From Escherichia phage P762: a DNA stretch of 38,954 bases. Position numbers and translations under genes: made by a program. Position 1 is the first letter of the stretch, and every line of letters begins with the position of its first letter. Below are positions 2,980 to 38,954 of the stretch, in pieces. The notes below the pieces were generated by a model. That model made no database searches and was not told the DNA's origin. It saw only the letters and a program-made list of their open reading frames with translations. The stretch lies in the sequence record MW876471; one strand, written 5' to 3'.

Positions 2980-3018
2980 AAAGTCTCCTCTTAAAGTATT
3001 ATAACTTAAAGGGCCTAT

Positions 3019-3041
3019 AGTCCCTATAGTGATAGTTAAGG
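3019..3041 (-). promoter_or_regulatory. phage RNAP promoter (phi13 position)
   Basis: minus-strand CTTAACTATCACTATAGGGA (plus strand tccctatagtgatagttaag), one of 11 copies of the same motif. Confidence 0.75.
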
Positions 3042-3065
3042 TAAATCTATAGGCCCTTCAATAAG

Positions 3066-5423
3066 TTAGACGGAACGAGCTTTCTTAGCGTATGACGCCT
3101 CCCAGCCACACCCAACGATGGACACTGGGGTAGGATAATCTGACTCTAAGGTTAGGCTCGTGGTTAATGCGTTACCATTCATAGCAAAGCGATACTGTCC
3201 ATCCCCAATGTTGGTAGTCCCGATGGTTTGCTGACCAAGTGTGTACCCGTTAAAGGTGTTCACGAACTCCCGCTCACCGTTTCTGACAATGAGCCTCAGA
3301 GCGCCAGTGTCTTTGTAGTTTACCCAAGCCCGACGAAGCTGTAGACGACCAGTGTCTTCAGACTTAGTTCCACTATCATCTTCAATCTTAATCAGGAACC
3401 GTGAGAACTTGTAGGACATCAGATAGGAACGTCCGATGAACACTGTGCGTCCTGACCAATCGCCGTTTAGGGTAACCACGGTAGAGATACTGGTCAAGTC
3501 CCCAAGGTCCACATAAGCACCCTGACTGTCAATCAGATAGTACCGACCGGGAGACGGAGCGTTGCCACCATAAGCAGCAGCAATGTCAACCGTAGTCTTA
3601 TAGGTGTCAGCATTATATGAGCCAATTGGAATTACCATAGACACCTTGGAGTCAATGTGTAGTCTATACGGCTCTGACGGGAAGTCAGTTGCCTCCTTGA
3701 TGAACTTAAGGTGCTCAATGTCTACCCCTCCTTGGTGCTGACGAATGATGAACATGGTAGAGCCAATAGAAGCAGACGCCAGAATCTTATCGTCTTTAGG
3801 GAACTCCCAGTGTGACCAAGAGGCTTGAAGCTGTACGCCGTCCTTAAACAAGAATTTGTAGATGTAGATTCGGTTGTATGCACCTGTAGAGTTGACGCAG
3901 ATGTAGTTCTCAGTCCCTGTACCTTGAATATCAAACACCCCGTTAGGGATGTAGGACAATACGTGACCAGTTGTATCATCGGCATCCTTCACATCAGACA
4001 CATCAGCTACAGCGAAGTATCGCTTAATGCTGGTGAATGACCCACGGGGGGCTGAGAAGAAGACTGAGCGTCCTACAGCGAACGGTCTGGCATTGTCACC
4101 TAAGGCAAACTCTGAGCCTACATCAAGCTGGATAGACTTCGAGGTAAGGACCCCAGAGCTTGTCATCACGAACTGAACCTCATCCGACCAAAGTAGTAGC
4201 TGCTCGCTAAACGGAACGGCATACTTAAGGATTGAGATACGAGGGTTACTTACAGCTACATCAATAGGGTCATCATCGCTCAGTGTCGCCACACTCTTAG
4301 GGAAGAACGCAAAGTAGCTGGCTGAACGGCTCATTATTACGTTCTCACCCGACAAGAACCCAAGTCTGTTCCTGTAGAAGAACACATCATTAATCGCAGC
4401 ATCCACGAAGCTAGGCATAGGGTTTGTGTCATCGTTACCAGCACCACGCTTGGACCAATCCAGAGTCTTAAACTCAAAGGAGCCATCAGGCTGTCTGACC
4501 AGAGCATGTGGCATTGTGGTGACATCAAAACCAGTGACAACTCCCGGCTCCACTGTCTCCTTCCACGTCTTAGTGTTGGAGTCATACATCACGTAGTATT
4601 CATCGGCGCTACTGTTTGTCTCACCTTGAATCTTAATGATATACCCATTAGGAGCGGCAAGAGGCAGTTTAGAGATTGTCTGCACAGTGTCTAGGACTGG
4701 GCTTATTAGCTGGTTAGCGTAGCCATCCTCCGTCTCCACTGAGTTAATATCGGTCCCTGAAGGAGCTGTGATTAGCAGGAAGCCAGACCCAAGGTCGAAC
4801 GTGAAGTCAGGATAGGCCTGAACAAGAAGGTCTCTCAGAGCTGCACCAATGGCTTGAGCGTCCACCTTAGGTGGGTCATTCTCGGCATCATTACCTGCTG
4901 GTAGCTTATGCGAGACCTTAACTCCACCGTTGATTCCCACCTTAAGGGTTCGACCATACTGTCCACCACGCAGGTTAATTAAAGCTCGTGCTTTGCGGTT
5001 ATAACCAGAGTGTGACTTCTCGCTTCCACCTTTGACGACAACCTTACGGTTAACGACGAACGTATAGTCTGCTACGGTAACGACACGGATGTCATCTCGT
5101 GGGTTGGAGGACTTAACGTAATCTACCGCACCTGACACTGAGTATTGATTGCCACTCAAGTCAACTACCTGAATGTTGGACCCATTGAACACGATGTAAT
5201 ACTGCTCATGCTCGTCACGGTTAATCAGGTGGAACTTAGGGTTGCTCCCAACGTCGATGTTAAGACGTCGCTTGAAGACTGTAGGTGGGCGCTTCTGGAG
5301 GCCATCACTCTCGGATGACCAGCAGTTAACCTGTGCCTCGCCTTGGTCTGAGAACCTCAGTATATCAGGCTGCTGGCTAATGCCACCTTTAAGGTTCTTG
5401 ATTGATTGAGTAATTAGTGGCAT
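3066..5423 (-). CDS. gp12: tail tubular protein B (gp12)
   Basis: 785-aa ORF, size and position as T7 gp12 (794 aa), downstream of gp11. Confidence 0.9.
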   Translation of the reverse strand: MPLITQSIKNLKGGISQQPDILRFSDQGEAQVNCWSSESDGLQKRPPTVFKRRLNIDVGSNPKFHLINRDEHEQYYIVFNGSNIQVVDLSGNQYSVSGAVDYVKSSNPRDDIRVVTVADYTFVVNRKVVVKGGSEKSHSGYNRKARALINLRGGQYGRTLKVGINGGVKVSHKLPAGNDAENDPPKVDAQAIGAALRDLLVQAYPDFTFDLGSGFLLITAPSGTDINSVETEDGYANQLISPVLDTVQTISKLPLAAPNGYIIKIQGETNSSADEYYVMYDSNTKTWKETVEPGVVTGFDVTTMPHALVRQPDGSFEFKTLDWSKRGAGNDDTNPMPSFVDAAINDVFFYRNRLGFLSGENVIMSRSASYFAFFPKSVATLSDDDPIDVAVSNPRISILKYAVPFSEQLLLWSDEVQFVMTSSGVLTSKSIQLDVGSEFALGDNARPFAVGRSVFFSAPRGSFTSIKRYFAVADVSDVKDADDTTGHVLSYIPNGVFDIQGTGTENYICVNSTGAYNRIYIYKFLFKDGVQLQASWSHWEFPKDDKILASASIGSTMFIIRQHQGGVDIEHLKFIKEATDFPSEPYRLHIDSKVSMVIPIGSYNADTYKTTVDIAAAYGGNAPSPGRYYLIDSQGAYVDLGDLTSISTVVTLNGDWSGRTVFIGRSYLMSYKFSRFLIKIEDDSGTKSEDTGRLQLRRAWVNYKDTGALRLIVRNGEREFVNTFNGYTLGQQTIGTTNIGDGQYRFAMNGNALTTSLTLESDYPTPVSIVGCGWEASYAKKARSV

Positions 5424-7466: not shown

Positions 7467-7568
7467 ATGATAATTCTCCTATTCAATTGAAAGATAAAGT
7501 TTATTACTTACTGTATGCCCAATCCGTATGGACTGAAGTAATAGGGAAACCTTGAGTCTATCTCTCGG

Positions 7569-7591
7569 TCTCCCTATAGTGATAGTTTAGT
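7569..7591 (-). promoter_or_regulatory. phage RNAP promoter (phi10 position)
   Basis: plus-strand ctccctatagtgatagtttag; upstream of capsid gene with ~100-nt leader ending in AGGAGA SD. Confidence 0.8.
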
Positions 7592-8477: not shown

Positions 8478-8565
8478 TGAGTCATTCTCCTTTAAGTCGT
8501 TAATAGGTAACGGGACAGAGTATGGTGGCTCCAAGTGGCACACTCTCGGTGAATGTGTGTCCCGT

Positions 8566-8588
8566 TGTTCCTATAGTGATAGTTTAGG
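8566..8588 (-). promoter_or_regulatory. phage RNAP promoter (phi9 position)
   Basis: plus-strand ttcctatagtgatagtttag between portal stop and scaffold gene. Confidence 0.75.
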
Positions 8589-11325: not shown

Positions 11326-11386
11326 CTTGAATCTCCTCTTTAAGTTAAGACTAAAGTCTATCTTATAGTCATATCTTAGGTCCTAA

Positions 11387-11409
11387 AGTCCCTATAGTGA
11401 TAGTTTAGT
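11387..11409 (-). promoter_or_regulatory. phage RNAP promoter (phi6.5 position)
   Basis: plus-strand gtccctatagtgatagtttag. Confidence 0.8.
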
Positions 11410-11535
11410 GTTTCACCTATGGATGACTGTTGGATTGATAGGATATGACTATCGGTTAGACTCAGTGTTTAGGGCGGTTGTTCGACCCGAACCACTTGTA
11501 CATGCAGTAAAGGGCCAGAAGTCCGGCCCAGTAAA

Positions 11536-13113: not shown

Positions 13114-15284
13114 TAGTGACACTCCTTCCACGTTGGTCCAATCTTACCTTCGGTATCAAGGACACATTTAAAGTTATAGAACTCACCCACCTTACGCATA
13201 GCAAGTTGAGCAATCTTGACGACTTCTTCGGCAATCTCCTGAGTACGACACGCAATCTGCAATTCGTCATGCACCCAAGCCATGTACGCAAAGTCACCTT
13301 CCCAGCCGTGAACATACCCGGCCTCTTCAAGCATACGTTCAGTCTCGACAATCCAGTGCTTACAGACTACCGCACCATCGCCTTGAAGTAAGGCGTTCAG
13401 TGCTGAGTGCGGCGACCGGATGTGGATACGGCGACCATCAAGTCCACGTAACCAACGGCGTTTCCACTTGACGATGTTCTCTCCATCCACCCACTTAGAG
13501 TCTGAGATTAACGTATTACTCACAGCTTCCCTTAGGTCTTTGATGGCTGGTGTACCCTCAATGAATTTCTTCATGAGAGCTGACCCTTCCTTCTTACCAC
13601 CGCCTACTATCAGTCCAATCTTAGCTGCCCCTGCACCATACAGGAACGCATAGATGAACGTCTTAGCGTTGTTACGGAAAGCATCATGGTCGTGGTTCGA
13701 CTTATCGCGGGGGACGTTAGGTGCTAACCCAGCGTTTACTGCGTTGGCCCAGTGGATGTCACCTTCGACCACAGTCTTCGCATAGGCACCACCATCAAAC
13801 GGAGCCGCTCGGTTCCCCAGACAACGAAGCTCAAGACCTGAGGCATCCACACCCACTTGAATCCAAGGGTCTGGCTTACCATCCGTCTTGTTCCAAGCTG
13901 CACCGAAAGCACCACGGCAAATCTCGCCATATGGAGCACCGTTAGCCGGGACTTGAGCCATGTTTGGTGAACTATGGGTCGCACGTCCGGTTACTGCACC
14001 GCATGGGTTGATTGAACCGTGCATACGTCCGTCTGGACCTACAAGTTTCAACCATGCGTTCTTACCTTCAGCCGCCTGACCGATTCGCTTCTGGACTACC
14101 AGATACTCACGAACCAGCTCTACGCAAGCCTGAGCCTCTGCGTCTGGCAACTTAACGTGTTCTAACGTCTCGTCATCGACTACAGGTTTCCCGGTGTCAG
14201 TGAAGTCCACAGGCTCCCAGCCACGCTCCATCAATACTTTCGCTAAGTGGTCTCCGCTTCCCGGATTAAACTCAACGTAAGTGATAGGTGTGAACGGTGC
14301 TCCCTCCATCGTGTCTCGTGAGTCGAACTCGCAAGGCTCCAGACCTAAGCGTTGAGCTTTGTTCTTCGGCTTCTTAAAGATGCCACCGACCTTAGGATAC
14401 ACGACTCGCGGATACTTCGGAAGGTCCTTGCCTGTCCGTGGGTGCTTGAAGAACTCCTTGCCTCCATTTGGTGCGTACCAGCTACCGAAAGTCGAACGCA
14501 GCTTGTCCAGCAGCTCTGCACGTTTGACGGTGAGTTCACGATATAAGCCTTCGACCATCTCGGTGTTCATCGGATAGCCGTTACGTTCCATCTTCGCACA
14601 GGTCCACGCAGCATCATGTTCCAGACGCAACGCATAAATCTGGTCGAAAGCGAACTGTTCAGACTGGAAGTAATACTTGTCATTCAGGAACTTCTTGAAC
14701 AACGCCAGTGTGACCACAACGTCTTGAACGTTATAGTCCAGCATCTCCTGAGACGGGAACAACCATTCGTCCCCAGCCTTATATTCGATACCTTCAGCCT
14801 TGCACTTGGCAACGTAATCGTGTTTGTACTCACCTTTCATCTCACCGAGACGATAACCCCAAGCCTCAAGAGACTGACGTCCCATCATAATAGGTGGCAG
14901 ACGACCAGCTTTCACTGCGCCCATGTCTGAGAACTTAATGTTTGGATACATCAAGCGGCCCAGCACCAAGGTATCAATCATCTTGTGTTTCGGGAAGTTA
15001 AAGCGTTTCCCAAAGTACAGACGCTTCAGCTTGTCAATAGCCGGGACGTCATAGTTGATACCGTTGTGGAATACCAGAATACCATCAGGTGATGCGGCAA
15101 TCTCTTCCACCTTCTGCACATACTCTTTGAAGCCGCCGACGATACCGACCATCGGAGCTACCCCATACTTAAGGGTCTCATTCGACTCGGCGTTAATCAG
15201 GACCCCACAGTGAAACTGGGAGACTGTATCAAGGAGACCGTTGGTCTCGATGTCAGAACCCCAGATACTCTTAAGGTCAAACAT
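13113..15284 (-). CDS. gp5: DNA polymerase gp5
   Basis: long blocks identical to T7 gp5 (HNGxxYDVPA, LEAWGYRLGEMKGEYK, YNVQDVVVT, KYPRxxxPKVGGIFKKPKNKAQR, GAVTGRATH, AKTFIYxFLYGAG, YMAWVHDE); start set at internal ATG MFDLKSIWGSDIETN with GGAGGA SD, not the track start at 15320. Confidence 0.97.
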   Translation of the reverse strand: MFDLKSIWGSDIETNGLLDTVSQFHCGVLINAESNETLKYGVAPMVGIVGGFKEYVQKVEEIAASPDGILVFHNGINYDVPAIDKLKRLYFGKRFNFPKHKMIDTLVLGRLMYPNIKFSDMGAVKAGRLPPIMMGRQSLEAWGYRLGEMKGEYKHDYVAKCKAEGIEYKAGDEWLFPSQEMLDYNVQDVVVTLALFKKFLNDKYYFQSEQFAFDQIYALRLEHDAAWTCAKMERNGYPMNTEMVEGLYRELTVKRAELLDKLRSTFGSWYAPNGGKEFFKHPRTGKDLPKYPRVVYPKVGGIFKKPKNKAQRLGLEPCEFDSRDTMEGAPFTPITYVEFNPGSGDHLAKVLMERGWEPVDFTDTGKPVVDDETLEHVKLPDAEAQACVELVREYLVVQKRIGQAAEGKNAWLKLVGPDGRMHGSINPCGAVTGRATHSSPNMAQVPANGAPYGEICRGAFGAAWNKTDGKPDPWIQVGVDASGLELRCLGNRAAPFDGGAYAKTVVEGDIHWANAVNAGLAPNVPRDKSNHDHDAFRNNAKTFIYAFLYGAGAAKIGLIVGGGKKEGSALMKKFIEGTPAIKDLREAVSNTLISDSKWVDGENIVKWKRRWLRGLDGRRIHIRSPHSALNALLQGDGAVVCKHWIVETERMLEEAGYVHGWEGDFAYMAWVHDELQIACRTQEIAEEVVKIAQLAMRKVGEFYNFKCVLDTEGKIGPTWKECH

Positions 15285-15304
15285 GGTTAATCCTCCGTTT
15301 AGTC

Positions 15305-15345
15305 TAATCATAAAGGCCACTCGATGTGAATGACCTTGAGTCTAG
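15305..15345 (-). promoter_or_regulatory. conserved hairpin, candidate RNase III site (R4.7 position)
   Basis: RNA CUAGACUCAAGGUCAU-loop-GUGGCCUUUAUGAUUAG; 8-bp stem AAGGUCAU/GUGGCCUU; same motif at 22301..22345 and 31831..31872. Confidence 0.5.
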
Positions 15346-15347
15346 AC

Positions 15348-15509
15348 CTAGAAGTCTGTACGCAAGAAGTGATACATAAACTTCCGGTTAGCTTTCTTCC
15401 ATGCCTTAGAGTCGAACCTTTGGTCTCCCAGAATGTTGGACAGGCAGGTTGCTTCATCGCTCCACCATTTGTACATGAACCGATGGTAGCGAGCTTTAAG
15501 TTTTCTTAG
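15348..15509 (-). CDS. small basic protein between genes 4 and 5
   Basis: TTG start with GGAGG SD right after the gp4 stop (about 54 aa, [16 protein letters not shown]...); start and reality uncertain. Confidence 0.35.
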
Positions 15510-17404: not shown

Positions 17405-17454
17405 TGGTCACTCCTTAATTACGAATGCGAACAAAGGGACAGGACTCATGGTCC

Positions 17455-17477
17455 CATCCCTAAGGTGATAGTTTAGG
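17455..17477 (-). promoter_or_regulatory. variant phage-promoter-like sequence
   Basis: plus-strand atccctaaggtgatagtttag: consensus with two changes in the TATA element (ctaaggtg vs ctatagtg); flanked by a GGGAC...GTCCC inverted repeat. Confidence 0.4.
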
Positions 17478-20749: not shown

Positions 20750-20786
20750 AAGCAAAGAAACCCAGCAGTCCGAAGACCACTGGGTT
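20750..20786 (-). terminator. rho-independent terminator after the ligase gene (TE-like early terminator)
   Basis: minus-strand CCCAGTGGTC-TTCG-GACTGCTGGG hairpin followed by TTTCTTTGCTTG; same position as T7 TE after gene 1.3. Confidence 0.65.
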
Positions 20787-22090: not shown

Positions 22091-22270
22091 TTACACTCCT
22101 ACGAAGTATTTCTCTTGGTTGACCAGAGAGTCTTTACCCTCAGCGTTTCGGAAAGCGCCCTTGACACCACCGCCACGCTTGGTCTTGTTCAGCTTGCGTC
22201 CCTTCGGAATGTAATCTTCAGTCTGCTGACGTTCACGAATGCGCTCGAAGTTGATAGTGTTCTGATACAT
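22091..22270 (-). CDS. gp1.1: gp1.1-like small basic protein
   Basis: 59-aa ORF (below track cut-off) with KGRKLNKTKR block identical to T7 gp1.1. Confidence 0.65.
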   Translation of the reverse strand: MYQNTINFERIRERQQTEDYIPKGRKLNKTKRGGGVKGAFRNAEGKDSLVNQEKYFVGV

Positions 22271-22300
22271 GTGGTAGCTCCAGTTGTTTAGGTTATAGGG

Positions 22301-22345
22301 TTAATCATGAAGGCCACGACTTTGAGTCATGACCTTGAGTCTAAT
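22301..22345 (-). promoter_or_regulatory. conserved hairpin, candidate RNase III site (R1.1 position)
   Basis: RNA UUAGACUCAAGGUCAUGA-loop-GUGGCCUUCAUGAUUAA; same stem as the 15305 and 31831 sites. Confidence 0.5.
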
Positions 22346-22364
22346 CCTATAGTGATAGTTTAGG
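22342..22364 (-). promoter_or_regulatory. phage RNAP promoter (phi1.1 position)
   Basis: plus-strand aatcctatagtgatagtttag. Confidence 0.75.
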
Positions 22365-25814: not shown

Positions 25815-25883
25815 ACTTAAAGTCCTTGTTATTAGTCTTTCACTTAAAGTCTCTTTGGTCTTTCACTTGGAGTCTTAGACCTT

Positions 25884-25906
25884 TAGTCCTATAGTGATAG
25901 TTAAGT
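25884..25906 (-). promoter_or_regulatory. phage RNAP promoter directly upstream of the RNAP gene
   Basis: plus-strand agtcctatagtgatagttaag about 75 nt upstream of the gene 1 ATG. Confidence 0.6.
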
Positions 25907-25911
25907 CAGAA

Positions 25912-26304
25912 TTACTTGCATATCAGTGGGTTAGCGTGCAGATGACTGAAGTCACCGTGAGTCGTGTGCTTGATGGTTGACCGTTGGTCTATCGCCTTCC
26001 AGCCTGAGACCAGAAGTTTACCATCGTCGGTGATTGGTCGTCCACCATACGCCAGCCACATCAGCTCGGACTTATGGCCCTCTGCCATGAGTCGTGCCCG
26101 CAGTACACGGTCGCGCTCCTGCTGTTGACGTGCGGTGTATGACGAGTGGCGATGCACATAATCGGTCTTGTTCCCGGTCTTCTCCCAGTAGTTGCGACCG
26201 CGAGAGTCCGTGCCGACGTACTTCCACTCTACGCCGTTCTTATCAGTGAATGTGCGAAGCGATATGATTGAGTCCATTGCGTGTCCCAGATTTGACATAT
26301 TCAT
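25912..26304 (-). CDS. hypothetical early protein (130 aa) where T7 has the gp0.7 kinase
   Basis: ORF with GGGAG SD; ATG overlaps upstream gene stop (TAATG); no kinase motifs. Confidence 0.7.
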   Translation of the reverse strand: MNMSNLGHAMDSIISLRTFTDKNGVEWKYVGTDSRGRNYWEKTGNKTDYVHRHSSYTARQQQERDRVLRARLMAEGHKSELMWLAYGGRPITDDGKLLVSGWKAIDQRSTIKHTTHGDFSHLHANPLICK

Positions 26305-26501
26305 TACAGTTTGCTCCCAAGTGTTGCTATATCCCAGACGTTCGCTAAGTTACGCGTGAATCGTCCGTTAGGTTGGCGTACAGTCCAGCGACCCAGACTT
26401 ACATGGTTGAATTTGTAGACGTTACGTGCCTTGTTGATGTCTCTCACCAGCACGTAGGCGATAAGTCCATAGCCTAAGATAACCAGAAGTCCCCAGCTCA
26501 T
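26304..26501 (-). CDS. small membrane protein (65 aa, one TM helix)
   Basis: internal ATG (MSWGLLVILGYGLIAYVLV...) used rather than the TTG start of the track ORF at 26606. Confidence 0.55.
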   Translation of the reverse strand: MSWGLLVILGYGLIAYVLVRDINKARNVYKFNHVSLGRWTVRQPNGRFTRNLANVWDIATLGSKL

Positions 26502-26590
26502 TAGAATGACCCTCGCTTGATTGCGTCCAGAAGGCCCCAAGCTATCAGAAAGATGATCGGAGATAAGCACACCCAGTAACCGATATTCAT
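26501..26590 (-). CDS. putative 29-aa hydrophobic peptide
   Basis: MNIGYWVCLSPIIFLIAWGLLDAIKRGSF with AGGAG SD; stop overlaps next ATG. Confidence 0.35.
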   Translation of the reverse strand: MNIGYWVCLSPIIFLIAWGLLDAIKRGSF

Positions 26591-26667
26591 AGTTAACTCC
26601 TATCAATGTAAGTGGTAATCTTTGAGGCCACCTATCAGTTAGATGACCTCTCGTCTATCACTCGCAG

Positions 26668-26793
26668 TTAGTAACCACCTGTCAGCGTTATGGTCAAGCT
26701 CTGGTGATTAGCCACGTAGCAAGCCCCGCGCTTCATCATCTCGTAGCACCCCTCGTAGAACGCCTGTTCACTGCTATAAGTTATCTGGTACAT
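26668..26793 (-). CDS. putative 41-aa early protein
   Basis: MYQITYSSEQAFYEGCYEMMKRGACYVANHQ... with GAGGA SD. Confidence 0.4.
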   Translation of the reverse strand: MYQITYSSEQAFYEGCYEMMKRGACYVANHQSLTITLTGGY

Positions 26794-26794
26794 G

Positions 26795-26941
26795 TTACTT
26801 GTCCTCACTGTCGTGTATGCGCTTGCGGCCCTCGTAGACCGCTTTCAGATGACGCATAGTCGCATCGTGGTTTAACTGCCCGGTCTTGACCATAATCCTG
26901 GCGTTGGTGACGTGGTGCTGGCAGAGACCATAAGTTACCAT
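26795..26941 (-). CDS. putative 48-aa early protein (gene 0.4 position)
   Basis: ATG overlaps ocr stop (ATGA); size and position like T7 gp0.4 but no sequence similarity recognised. Confidence 0.45.
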   Translation of the reverse strand: MVTYGLCQHHVTNARIMVKTGQLNHDATMRHLKAVYEGRKRIHDSEDK

Positions 26942-27273
26942 CACTCGCAGTCCTCTTCAGGCTCGAACCATACCACATCACGGCTATCAGACACATCGTT
27001 ATACAGTGCCTCGTAAATGCGAGCTTGCAGTATGCGCGTTACGTCCTTGGTATCAGGCATCAGCCCAGAGTCTTCGAACTCAATGTCTATACCATCAGCA
27101 GCCATCACCGTGAAAATCTCGTGGTAATAGTGCGGAACCTGACCGTCTACGACCTCATGCAGCGCATCGTGATAATCATCGCCTTCAGTTATTTCGTCGT
27201 ACTGAATGCGATCGTTAAATGCTTCAACAGTTGCAGCCAGCAGCTCATAGTATGCGTTAGCGTTACGTTCCAT
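26941..27273 (-). CDS. ocr: Ocr-like DNA-mimic anti-restriction protein (gene 0.3)
   Basis: acidic 110-aa protein; [41 protein letters not shown] almost identical to T7 Ocr. Confidence 0.93.
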
Positions 27274-27485
27274 AGTTATATCCTCTCAGTTGTTAGTGAC
27301 TATCAGTCAGGGCCTTCAGTCGCTCAAGTCAAGCCCGTCTCGCGGTAGACTCAAAGACCCTGTAGTTAGTCGCTATCGGCGCACATTAAGAGTTTATCCA
27401 GATTGTTAAAGAGCATTCGCGTTGGCTGTCGTCGCCGTGCTATCCCGTTTCAGTGTTGGGACTCACCGTTGTTTCAATGTGGTAC

Positions 27486-30536: not shown

Positions 30537-31328
30537 TTATACGTTAAAGATTCGGTCTACACGTACTGTAAGCGATGATAACGTTAGGTCTTCTGACCCA
30601 GTAACGATGATACCAAGCATGATGCCAGTTTCTACAAACGGGTCGTCCGAATCAGCGATGTAGCTGTGGATAGCTGATTCACGGATGGTGAAGAGCTTCT
30701 GGTCAGATGTATCCGTAACAGACGATAAGGTCGTATTATCTGGGCGACGAAGCTGCACTCTCCATTTATGAGACGTTTCTGTAGGGAATTCACCAGCGAA
30801 TCGAACTACGAAGTTTACACCACTTAGCCCCTCTTTAGCTGGGAATATCATCTTTCCGTCTGAGATAGTCACAACACCGCTGTTAACTCCCCTAACTAAA
30901 GGTAGAGTCATTAGGTTAGTGAACTGTCCAGCCGTACACACTTGAGTCCCTGACCAATTGAATGTGTCTAGAGAATACTCAGCGTGAGAGACAGGACGCG
31001 ATTCTCGATAGGTATACTCCACCTTAACCAGCCCGATTCCACTATCATCCAGCTTGGCGACCTTAAGAATTAGGAAACCATCTTCAGTAGCCCCATCAAC
31101 TTCCAGACGCACACTTTCTGTCTGTAAGGGCCAGCCTCCACCATCGGAGAAATTACCAGTAGTAGACGTACCGTCGCTTAGTGTAATTTTAGTAGACTCA
31201 GCGTTAGCTGGGACCTTCACGTATATTGTTCCAGCCAATAAGTGACCGGATGGGTTCTTCAATCCAGTTGGTGCTCCAGTCACAAAGTGCCACACCACGT
31301 CAGTTTTCAAAGTAATGATGTTACCCAT
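30537..31328 (-). CDS. hypothetical protein (263 aa) inserted between Rz/Rz1 and large terminase
   Basis: AAGGAG SD; start overlaps Rz stop; beta-rich, Gly/Thr/Ser/Val-rich; T7 has no gene here. Confidence 0.8.
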   Translation of the reverse strand: MGNIITLKTDVVWHFVTGAPTGLKNPSGHLLAGTIYVKVPANAESTKITLSDGTSTTGNFSDGGGWPLQTESVRLEVDGATEDGFLILKVAKLDDSGIGLVKVEYTYRESRPVSHAEYSLDTFNWSGTQVCTAGQFTNLMTLPLVRGVNSGVVTISDGKMIFPAKEGLSGVNFVVRFAGEFPTETSHKWRVQLRRPDNTTLSSVTDTSDQKLFTIRESAIHSYIADSDDPFVETGIMLGIIVTGSEDLTLSSLTVRVDRIFNV

Positions 31329-31773: not shown

Positions 31774-31830
31774 AGGCGCCCTCCCGGTTTATCAGATTTC
31801 ACGTAGAGTCTCCTCCACTAGTTAGTGTTA

Positions 31831-31872
31831 ACCATAAAGGCCACTACATACAGTAATGACCTTGAGTCTAAC
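31831..31872 (-). promoter_or_regulatory. conserved hairpin, candidate RNase III site (R18.5 position)
   Basis: RNA GUUAGACUCAAGGUCAU-loop-GUGGCCUUUAUGGUU, same stem as the other two sites. Confidence 0.5.
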
Positions 31873-31874
31873 AC

Positions 31875-32138
31875 TTATTGAACACCATACCCGGTGTCAT
31901 TATCTTCCGTAGCTGAGAGCACCTTATCGTACTCTGCGTTCAGGGCCTCCATATCAGCCAGCGTCTTCTCGTCCACAGACACCTTACTTAACACAAAGTT
32001 GTGACGAGCAAGCAGCTTCTCAATGGCGTTGTAAAGCTGAGGTGAACGCTTAGAGTCATCCCGCAGGTCTTGCAGCATGAGTCGAGCACGTTCAGTATCT
32101 AGCATTAAGAGGAACTTCTCTAAGTCCATCTGCGTCAT
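31875..32138 (-). CDS. gp18: terminase small subunit / DNA maturation protein gp18
   Basis: 87-aa ORF, size as T7 gp18 (89 aa), after the holin. Confidence 0.75.
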   Translation of the reverse strand: MTQMDLEKFLLMLDTERARLMLQDLRDDSKRSPQLYNAIEKLLARHNFVLSKVSVDEKTLADMEALNAEYDKVLSATEDNDTGYGVQ

Positions 32139-38475: not shown

Positions 38476-38954
38476 TTACTCCTTACCAATTAGTGCGTTT
38501 GCGATACCCTCCAGTGAGACGTCATTGTACATCCCACCGCGCTTCTCGATATTGGCCTCTCGGTCAGCTCGACGTTTATCACCAGCAGCTTTAGTCCCGA
38601 CGATACGCGCTCGCTTGTTAGCGTCACGTTCTGCCTGAGCGTATGCGGCATCTTGTGCCTTCTGCTGTTGTTCGCGGTAGAGTTTACCTACAATTTCTTT
38701 ATCGTATCGAATACGAATAGTCCCTGTAGCGTCTTGGAGGAAGATAGAGCCGTTCTGTTCAACAACGGACAACTGAGAGTTCACTACCCAAGGGTTAGCC
38801 TTAATGAGTTGCTGACGAGCTGTGTCGATAATGTCTCGACCAACCTGCCACGACTCTGGGTTATCCCCGACCATAAGCTGGTGTTTGGACACCATGCCTA
38901 TGGACTTACCGTCAGAACCTTCAGACTGGAACGTTACGGTGTTCTCATTCAGCC
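38476..38954 (-). CDS. gp15: internal virion protein gp15, 3' part (same CDS as 1..1931)
   Basis: C-terminal translation ..SWQVGRDII..ANPWVVN.QL...GSIFL.DATG.IRIRYDKE matches the T7 gp15 C-terminus; upstream part lies beyond the window end. Confidence 0.85.
   Translation of the reverse strand, partial: LNENTVTFQSEGSDGKSIGMVSKHQLMVGDNPESWQVGRDIIDTARQQLIKANPWVVNSQLSVVEQNGSIFLQDATGTIRIRYDKEIVGKLYREQQQKAQDAAYAQAERDANKRARIVGTKAAGDKRRADREANIEKRGGMYNDVSLEGIANALIGKE
38828..38954. repeat. 127-bp exact duplicate of window positions 1..127 (circular-assembly overlap)
   Basis: end sequence ataatgtctcgaccaacctgccacgactctggg...ttctcattcagcc is identical to the first 127 bases; lies inside the gp15 coding sequence. 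Confidence 0.9.

Follow-up and report, generated by a model that had tools for sequence, protein, structure and literature searches.

Three hairpins in the window, by which we mean the whole 38,954-nucleotide stretch of Escherichia phage P762 analysed here (MW876471), are very probably T7-type RNase III processing signals on the sense (minus-strand) RNA, judging from their homology and fold. One stands between the phi1.1 promoter and gene 1.1, one immediately ahead of gene 5, and one separates gene 18 from gene 18.5, which is Rz-like. The initial annotation had named them as counterparts of T7 R1.1, R4.7 and R18.5, and this identification is supported by sequence homology, by a two-helix architecture with covariation, and by position. 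The finding is genuine but ordinary, because the hairpins are this phage's counterparts of RNase III sites well known from T7; the feature is of a long-known kind, neither novel nor surprising, and adds no new biology beyond T7.

Over a 6-kb stretch the window shows 96% identity to Enterobacteria phage IME177 and 93.6% to phage K1F, and by its sequence it is assigned to a K1F-like T7 relative (genus Kayfunavirus, family Autographiviridae). The gene order is that of a T7-like genome, reverse-complemented and circularly permuted, with all large ORFs on the minus strand; statements about RNA refer to that strand throughout. The two ends of the window share an identical 127 bases (1–127 and 38828–38954), leaving a unique genome length of ~38,827 bases. 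Since the window is permuted and reverse-complemented, this end repeat is probably an assembly overlap rather than a true terminal repeat. Several features of the minus strand lie apart from the three hairpins. A 12-bp G+C-rich hairpin with a T-rich tail stands just 3' of the ligase gene (20759–20786), where the early terminator TE would be expected. The phi9 transcript of the scaffold gene has a leader (~8500–8572) that forms a long, branched hairpin at about −24 kcal/mol (ACGGGACA...UGUCCCGU); no named T7 site is located at this point. A 263-aa ORF (30537–31328) sits in the interval from gene 18.5 (Rz-like) to gene 19 (large terminase), an interval that carries no gene in T7; it has no Pfam match and a sole PHROG match, phrog_17779, of unknown function.

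Sequence, fold and conservation of the three hairpins

The near-identical elements of ~42 nt described in the initial annotation are present at 15305–15345, 22301–22345 and 31831–31872. On the sense strand they read UAGACUCAAGGUCAU, a variable loop, and GUGGCCUU(U/C)AUG(A/G)UUA, and our repeat search grouped them at 84–90% identity over 21–49 nt (families D7 and D10). The word GTGGCCTTNATG occurs exactly three times in the window against an expectation of 0.5, and AGACTCAAGG exactly four times, the fourth being in the capsid leader. Chance is excluded for the three elements by a covariance-model E value of ~2e-11 per copy.

The 8-bp stem originally assigned to each element is correct but incomplete, as RNAfold adds a longer upper stem, an internal loop and a lower stem. 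The folding check proposed for the three sites gave the same architecture in all of them: a lower stem of 7–10 bp, a 4-nt/5-nt internal loop with ACUC opposite UAUGA, and an upper stem of 10–12 bp, with full structures spanning 15301–15348, 22294–22351 and 31824–31875. The sequence of this loop, present in 3/3 named sites, is identical to, or one base off, that of T7 R1.1 and R0.5. Fold z-scores of the sites range from −2.8 to −4.7. Between 19 and 24 pairs are predicted in each of the four canonical copies (the fourth is described below) and 29 in an expanded site before gene 0.3, with 3–4 G-U pairs per site. The structure is strand-specific: antisense folding is weaker than sense folding by 2.6–10.4 kcal/mol, and the model score falls from ~60 bits on the sense strand to ~9 bits on the antisense strand.

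The hairpin before gene 5 (15301–15348, minus strand; 61.3 bits, E 1.7e-11), counterpart of R4.7 in T7 and phiSG-JL2, consists of the lower stem GGUCUAG/UUAGACU, the internal loop ACUC/UAUGA and the upper stem AAGGUCAUUC/GAGUGGCCUU, with the gene 5 ATG downstream at 15284. As regards the proximal-box and distal-box pairs that suit E. coli RNase III, this copy should be compatible, since it has the exact R1.1 upper stem; the other copies differ from R1.1 at the pair next to the upper-stem top, which is G-C before gene 1.1. The R1.1 counterpart (22294–22351, minus strand; 60.4 bits) lies ahead of the gene 1.1 ATG at 22270. A phage RNA polymerase promoter core, AAACTATCACTATAGG (22346–22361, minus strand), abuts it directly on the 5' side, and the TATAGG of this promoter forms part of the lower stem. 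The R18.5 counterpart (31824–31875, minus strand; 61.0 bits) separates gene 18, for the small terminase subunit, from gene 18.5, for the Rz-like spanin.

Two observations concern the surroundings of the pre-gene-5 hairpin. A 49-aa ORF crosses it in the window (15308–15457, minus strand), in K1F (L004:12743–12892, named gp4.4) and in CR44b (L003:7351–7500, named 4.22); it has no Pfam match and may be a spurious call across a conserved RNA structure. In four relatives (L085, L016, L080 and L007), 12 extra bases complete a promoter, CTAAGCTATCACTGTAGGA, directly 5' of the site, giving the arrangement seen at gene 1.1; these bases are absent in the window and in K1F.

Covariation supports the two-helix structure. 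An alignment of 11 sequences, comprising four window copies and seven T7 sites, has 94.6% of its cells paired under this structure, compared with 29–49% when the partners are slid. The covariance model built from this alignment scores the three named window sites at 60–61 bits, the fourth copy at 53 bits and the T7 sites at 45–67 bits, and it recovered T7 R6.5, which was outside the training set. A motif scan of viral contigs gave at least 120 stretches, almost all from contigs of 38–41 kb, and the model found 169 sites in 82 loci, namely 80 stretches among the matches listed together with CR44b and K1F. In the 117 distinct sites from T7-like contigs among the matches listed, 96.3% of cells are paired (23–50% in slid controls), and changes on both sides occur in 8/8 lower-stem pairs and in 13/17 pairs overall. 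The core was likewise the same in 51 sequences outside the motif-scan pattern.

When 71 nt around the site between genes 18 and 18.5 served as a query, 770 phage records matched. In relatives whose flanks are 78–99% identical, the stems and the internal loop are essentially unchanged, whereas substitutions and indels are seen in the terminal loops and the intergenic DNA next to the sites has diverged; where the top of the upper stem is altered, it is altered on both sides. An Rfam scan of the window at the gathering threshold gave 0 matches, and Rfam seems to lack a family for the RNase III sites of T7. Our literature search on RNase III sites of K1F-like phages returned nothing relevant.

Proposed processing and alternative readings

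We propose that each element would form an interrupted helix of roughly two turns, which host RNase III would bind and cut at one bond on the internal loop's 3' side, between CCUUUAU and GAUU. The predicted scissile bonds, placed by alignment, lie between 15310 and 15309 (UAU/GA), between 22307 and 22306, and between 31834 and 31833, with a corresponding predicted bond between 26621 and 26620 in the fourth copy. Such cuts would split polycistronic phage transcripts at the gene 1/1.1, 4/5 and 18/18.5 boundaries, separating the gene 1, gene 4 and gene 17–18 messages from those of genes 1.1–1.3, gene 5 and genes 18.5–19. The upstream RNA would retain a protective 3' hairpin, and the downstream RNA would begin 20–60 nt ahead of the next ribosome-binding site. 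Cleavage, the exact bond and the effects on RNA stability and translation are what we infer from T7. The proposed geometry can be set beside known RNase III substrates, which typically span two turns of helix; no fewer than 11 bp are required from the cut to the loop, the tetraloop sequence is irrelevant, and internal loops confine the cut to one strand, leaving a protective 3' hairpin (PMC1540722). T7 itself has ten RNase III sites and can grow without the enzyme (PMC6938266), so the sites in the window probably tune expression and are not essential.

The early region of the window (25912–27273, minus strand) holds only ORFs of ≤130 aa, none of them homologous to the protein kinase of T7 gene 0.7, and no such kinase is annotated in K1F. 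In T7 this kinase stimulates RNase III. Its absence, like the apparent lack of an Rfam family and of annotated sites in K1F and CR44b, counts against the RNase III reading. The putative processing sites are thus maintained without the kinase.

The hairpins might instead be conserved for a role that involves no cleavage: they could stabilise mRNA or serve as translational operators of the downstream genes, with a protein of phage or host as ligand, or with RNase III acting purely as an RNA-binding protein. Consistent with this, the internal loop and adjoining pairs are near-invariant in hundreds of phages, beyond the known needs of RNase III, and the sites lie 20–60 nt upstream of start codons; moreover, T7 is viable in hosts without RNase III (PMC6938266) and some substrate variants are bound by the enzyme but left uncut (PMC1540722). 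Such a role is nevertheless very unlikely, given that the upper stem and internal loop of the pre-gene-5 copy are identical to those of T7 R1.1, which is efficiently cleaved. That we know of no candidate binding protein for the hairpins also counts against it. A function at the DNA level, as a recombination or replication signal or as a mobile palindromic cassette sometimes carrying a phage promoter, would account for several near-identical intergenic copies, one of which abuts a promoter, and for the relatives with a promoter directly 5' of the pre-gene-5 copy; T7 R1.1 also lies within the primary replication origin region. However, the sites keep fixed, syntenic positions across T7, T3-like and K1F-like phages, the pairing depends on G-U pairs and on one strand, and compensatory changes maintain pairing in the RNA. 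The strand asymmetry and the G-U pairs lead us to reject this explanation as largely refuted, and we consider it extremely improbable.

Stable intergenic hairpins at gene-cluster boundaries could also suggest places at which the RNA polymerase of host or phage terminates or pauses, a suggestion to which we attach almost no credence. No U-run follows the stems on their 3' side, the stems contain 35–45% G+C, and a terminator-like scan called 0/3 named sites, though it did detect the TE-like hairpin at 20759–20786; the missing U-run and the missing calls are the grounds on which we reject it. RNase III processing remains our preferred reading, with conservation so much above the known recognition needs of the enzyme that another constraint may act too. 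The near-invariant loop and pairs in >700 phage genomes, together with GACUCAA(G)G in the capsid leader, could hint at a second sequence-specific ligand or function, which we regard as unlikely; examples could be a factor acting on the 3' hairpin after processing, or a part in controlling translation. In a related idea, promoter-plus-processing-site units could move as cassettes.

Further copies and the capsid-leader motif

A fourth strong copy, absent from the initial annotation, lies in the early region (26604–26667, minus strand; 53.2 bits, E 1e-9; repeat family D7). It is R0.5/R0.45-like, has the internal loop ACGAG/CAAAGA, and has a K1F orthologue at L004:1763–1825. Also absent from that annotation is a hairpin directly upstream of the ocr-like gene 0.3 (27293–27374, minus strand; 15.6 bits, E 0.35), which is a probable R0.3-type site. 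Its lower stem and internal loop match a K1F site (L004:1027–1089, 45 bits), and its upper stem is expanded and branched.

Three atypical candidates were also found on the minus strand. At 17424–17461, a 5'-terminal hairpin is followed by CCCUUUGUUCGCAUU, a 15-mer identical to the T7 R3.8 sequence, making this a candidate R3.8-type site. A candidate R13-type site at 3002–3068 (repeat families D3 and D6) has a stem of ~19 bp, formed by AAGGGCCUAUAG/CUAUAGGCCCUU plus UAACUU/AAGUUA, with the phi13 promoter in its loop. The weakest candidate is an R6.5-type site at 11355–11462, where a perfect 11-bp stem (AUAGUCAUAUC/GAUAUGACUAU) with outer pairs encloses the phi6.5 promoter. A promoter-enclosing stem is common to the phi6.5 and phi13 candidates of the window, T7 R6.5, and R6.5 and R13 of phiSG-JL2.

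No counterpart of R1 or R1.3 was found in the window. Directly upstream of the RNA polymerase gene 1 stands a consensus phage promoter (25888–25903, minus strand), at a position that in T7 is occupied by RNase III site R1 and lacks a phage promoter. The gene 1 leader that follows (25815–25887, minus strand) contains short direct repeats, with AAGTGAAAGAC and GACTTTAAGT each present twice.

The initial annotation had further described an AGACUC(C)AAGG element shared by the hairpins, the capsid-gene leader and the gene 1 leader. In the capsid leader the match is exact, TAGACTCAAGG at 7550–7560. The gene 1 leader reads AGACTCCAAGTG at 25864–25875, without AAGG, and we rejected this weak match as the same element. 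A common function of the leader element is not supported, with 9/10 positions of the capsid 10-mer conserved and the gene 1 match weak. In the capsid leader, the 11-mer TAGACTCAAGG occupies the loop and 3' arm of a 5'-terminal hairpin of the phi10 transcript (7543–7575, minus strand; GGGAGACC...GGUUUCCC). Considered as a further RNase III site, it was rejected at 9.2 bits and E 10, with the 3' half absent; because this hairpin has neither a 3' half-site nor an internal loop, it falls outside the R1.1 class. The 9/10 conservation of the 10-mer was seen in K1F (AGACTCAATG) and in the relative L080 (TGACTCAAGG), and these variants leave GACUCAA alone constant. The hairpin is the counterpart of the leader hairpin of T7 phi10 and has the same arms as the 5'-leader hairpins of T7 phi10 and phi3.8, but it differs in having a larger loop, of 14 nt, in which the motif GACUCAA lies.

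Words within one mismatch of AGACTCAAGG number 23 in the window (12 sense, 11 antisense), compared with 3.6 in shuffles and 2.7 for permuted motifs. An order-5 Markov model gives expectations of ~6 sense and ~3.5 antisense. The excess amounts to a minor word bias, its antisense part being unexplained.

The practical value of these sites lies in annotation. The nearest GenBank records, K1F and CR44b, have no RNase III sites annotated, and small ORFs that they do annotate run through the pre-gene-5 hairpin. If the five canonical sites and as many as three atypical ones were marked, K1F-like phages, a group with members in use for phage therapy and engineering, would have a correct transcript map.

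Comparison with T7 and phiSG-JL2

Dunn and Studier reportedly described the T7 RNase III signals R0.5, R1.1, R4.7 and R18.5 in 1983. The feature tables of the T7 records V01146 and NC_001604, as returned, list no RNase III sites, and the cleavage coordinates used here are those we take to be given in the Dunn and Studier annotation. Seven of the 10 presumed cleavage positions fall on the same motif as the window elements. At the presumed cut, marked by a slash, R0.5 reads GAUAGACUCAAGGUCGCUCCUAGCGAGUGGCCUUUAU/GAUUAUCAC and R1.1 reads ACUCAAGGUCAUUCGCAAGAGUGGCCUUUAU/GAUUG; R0.3, R1, R1.3, R4.7 and R18.5 have sequences similar to this R0.5/R1.1 motif, and folding gives the T7 sites this two-stem shape too. 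The window sites can be aligned with T7 R0.3, R0.5, R1, R1.1, R1.3, R4.7 and R18.5 over a common core, ACUCAAGGUCAU...GUGGCCUUUAUGAUU, and the 11-mer UAGACUCAAGG of the window elements is identical in T7 R0.5. R1.1 RNA is the model substrate of the Nicholson laboratory. [quoted passage not shown]

The closest likeness is between T7 R1.1 and the pre-gene-5 copy, which are the same base for base in the 10-bp upper stem and the internal loop and differ in the terminal loop and lower stem alone; more generally, T7 and the window have different lower-stem and terminal-loop sequences. As there is no gene 4.7, the R4.7 counterpart immediately precedes gene 5. The R1.1 site has one promoter in the window compared with two flanking promoters in T7, and unlike T7 the window yielded no R1 or R1.3 counterpart and no gene 0.7 kinase.

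An independent annotation is available for one of the 770 phages matched by the gene 18/18.5 query, the Salmonella phage phiSG-JL2 (EU547803, a T3-like Teetrevirus), in which ten stem-loops are labelled as putative RNase III sites. Our model gave eight matches in this genome, all of them among the ten annotated sites (8/10), with no other match at E ≤ 1. The two sites it missed, R3.8 and R13, were both missed in T7 too. The RNase III annotations of phiSG-JL2 are themselves predictions, and this phage belongs to another genus with another promoter consensus; unlike the window, it also possesses a gene 0.7 kinase as well as sites R1 and R1.3. The two genomes nevertheless agree in the placement of their sites. 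The 159-aa ORF of the window is a homologue of T3 gene 1.05, and the order of gene 1.05, promoter 1.1, R1.1 and gene 1.1 is common to the window and phiSG-JL2, as are an R4.7 immediately ahead of gene 5 and an R18.5 that separates gene 18 from gene 18.5.
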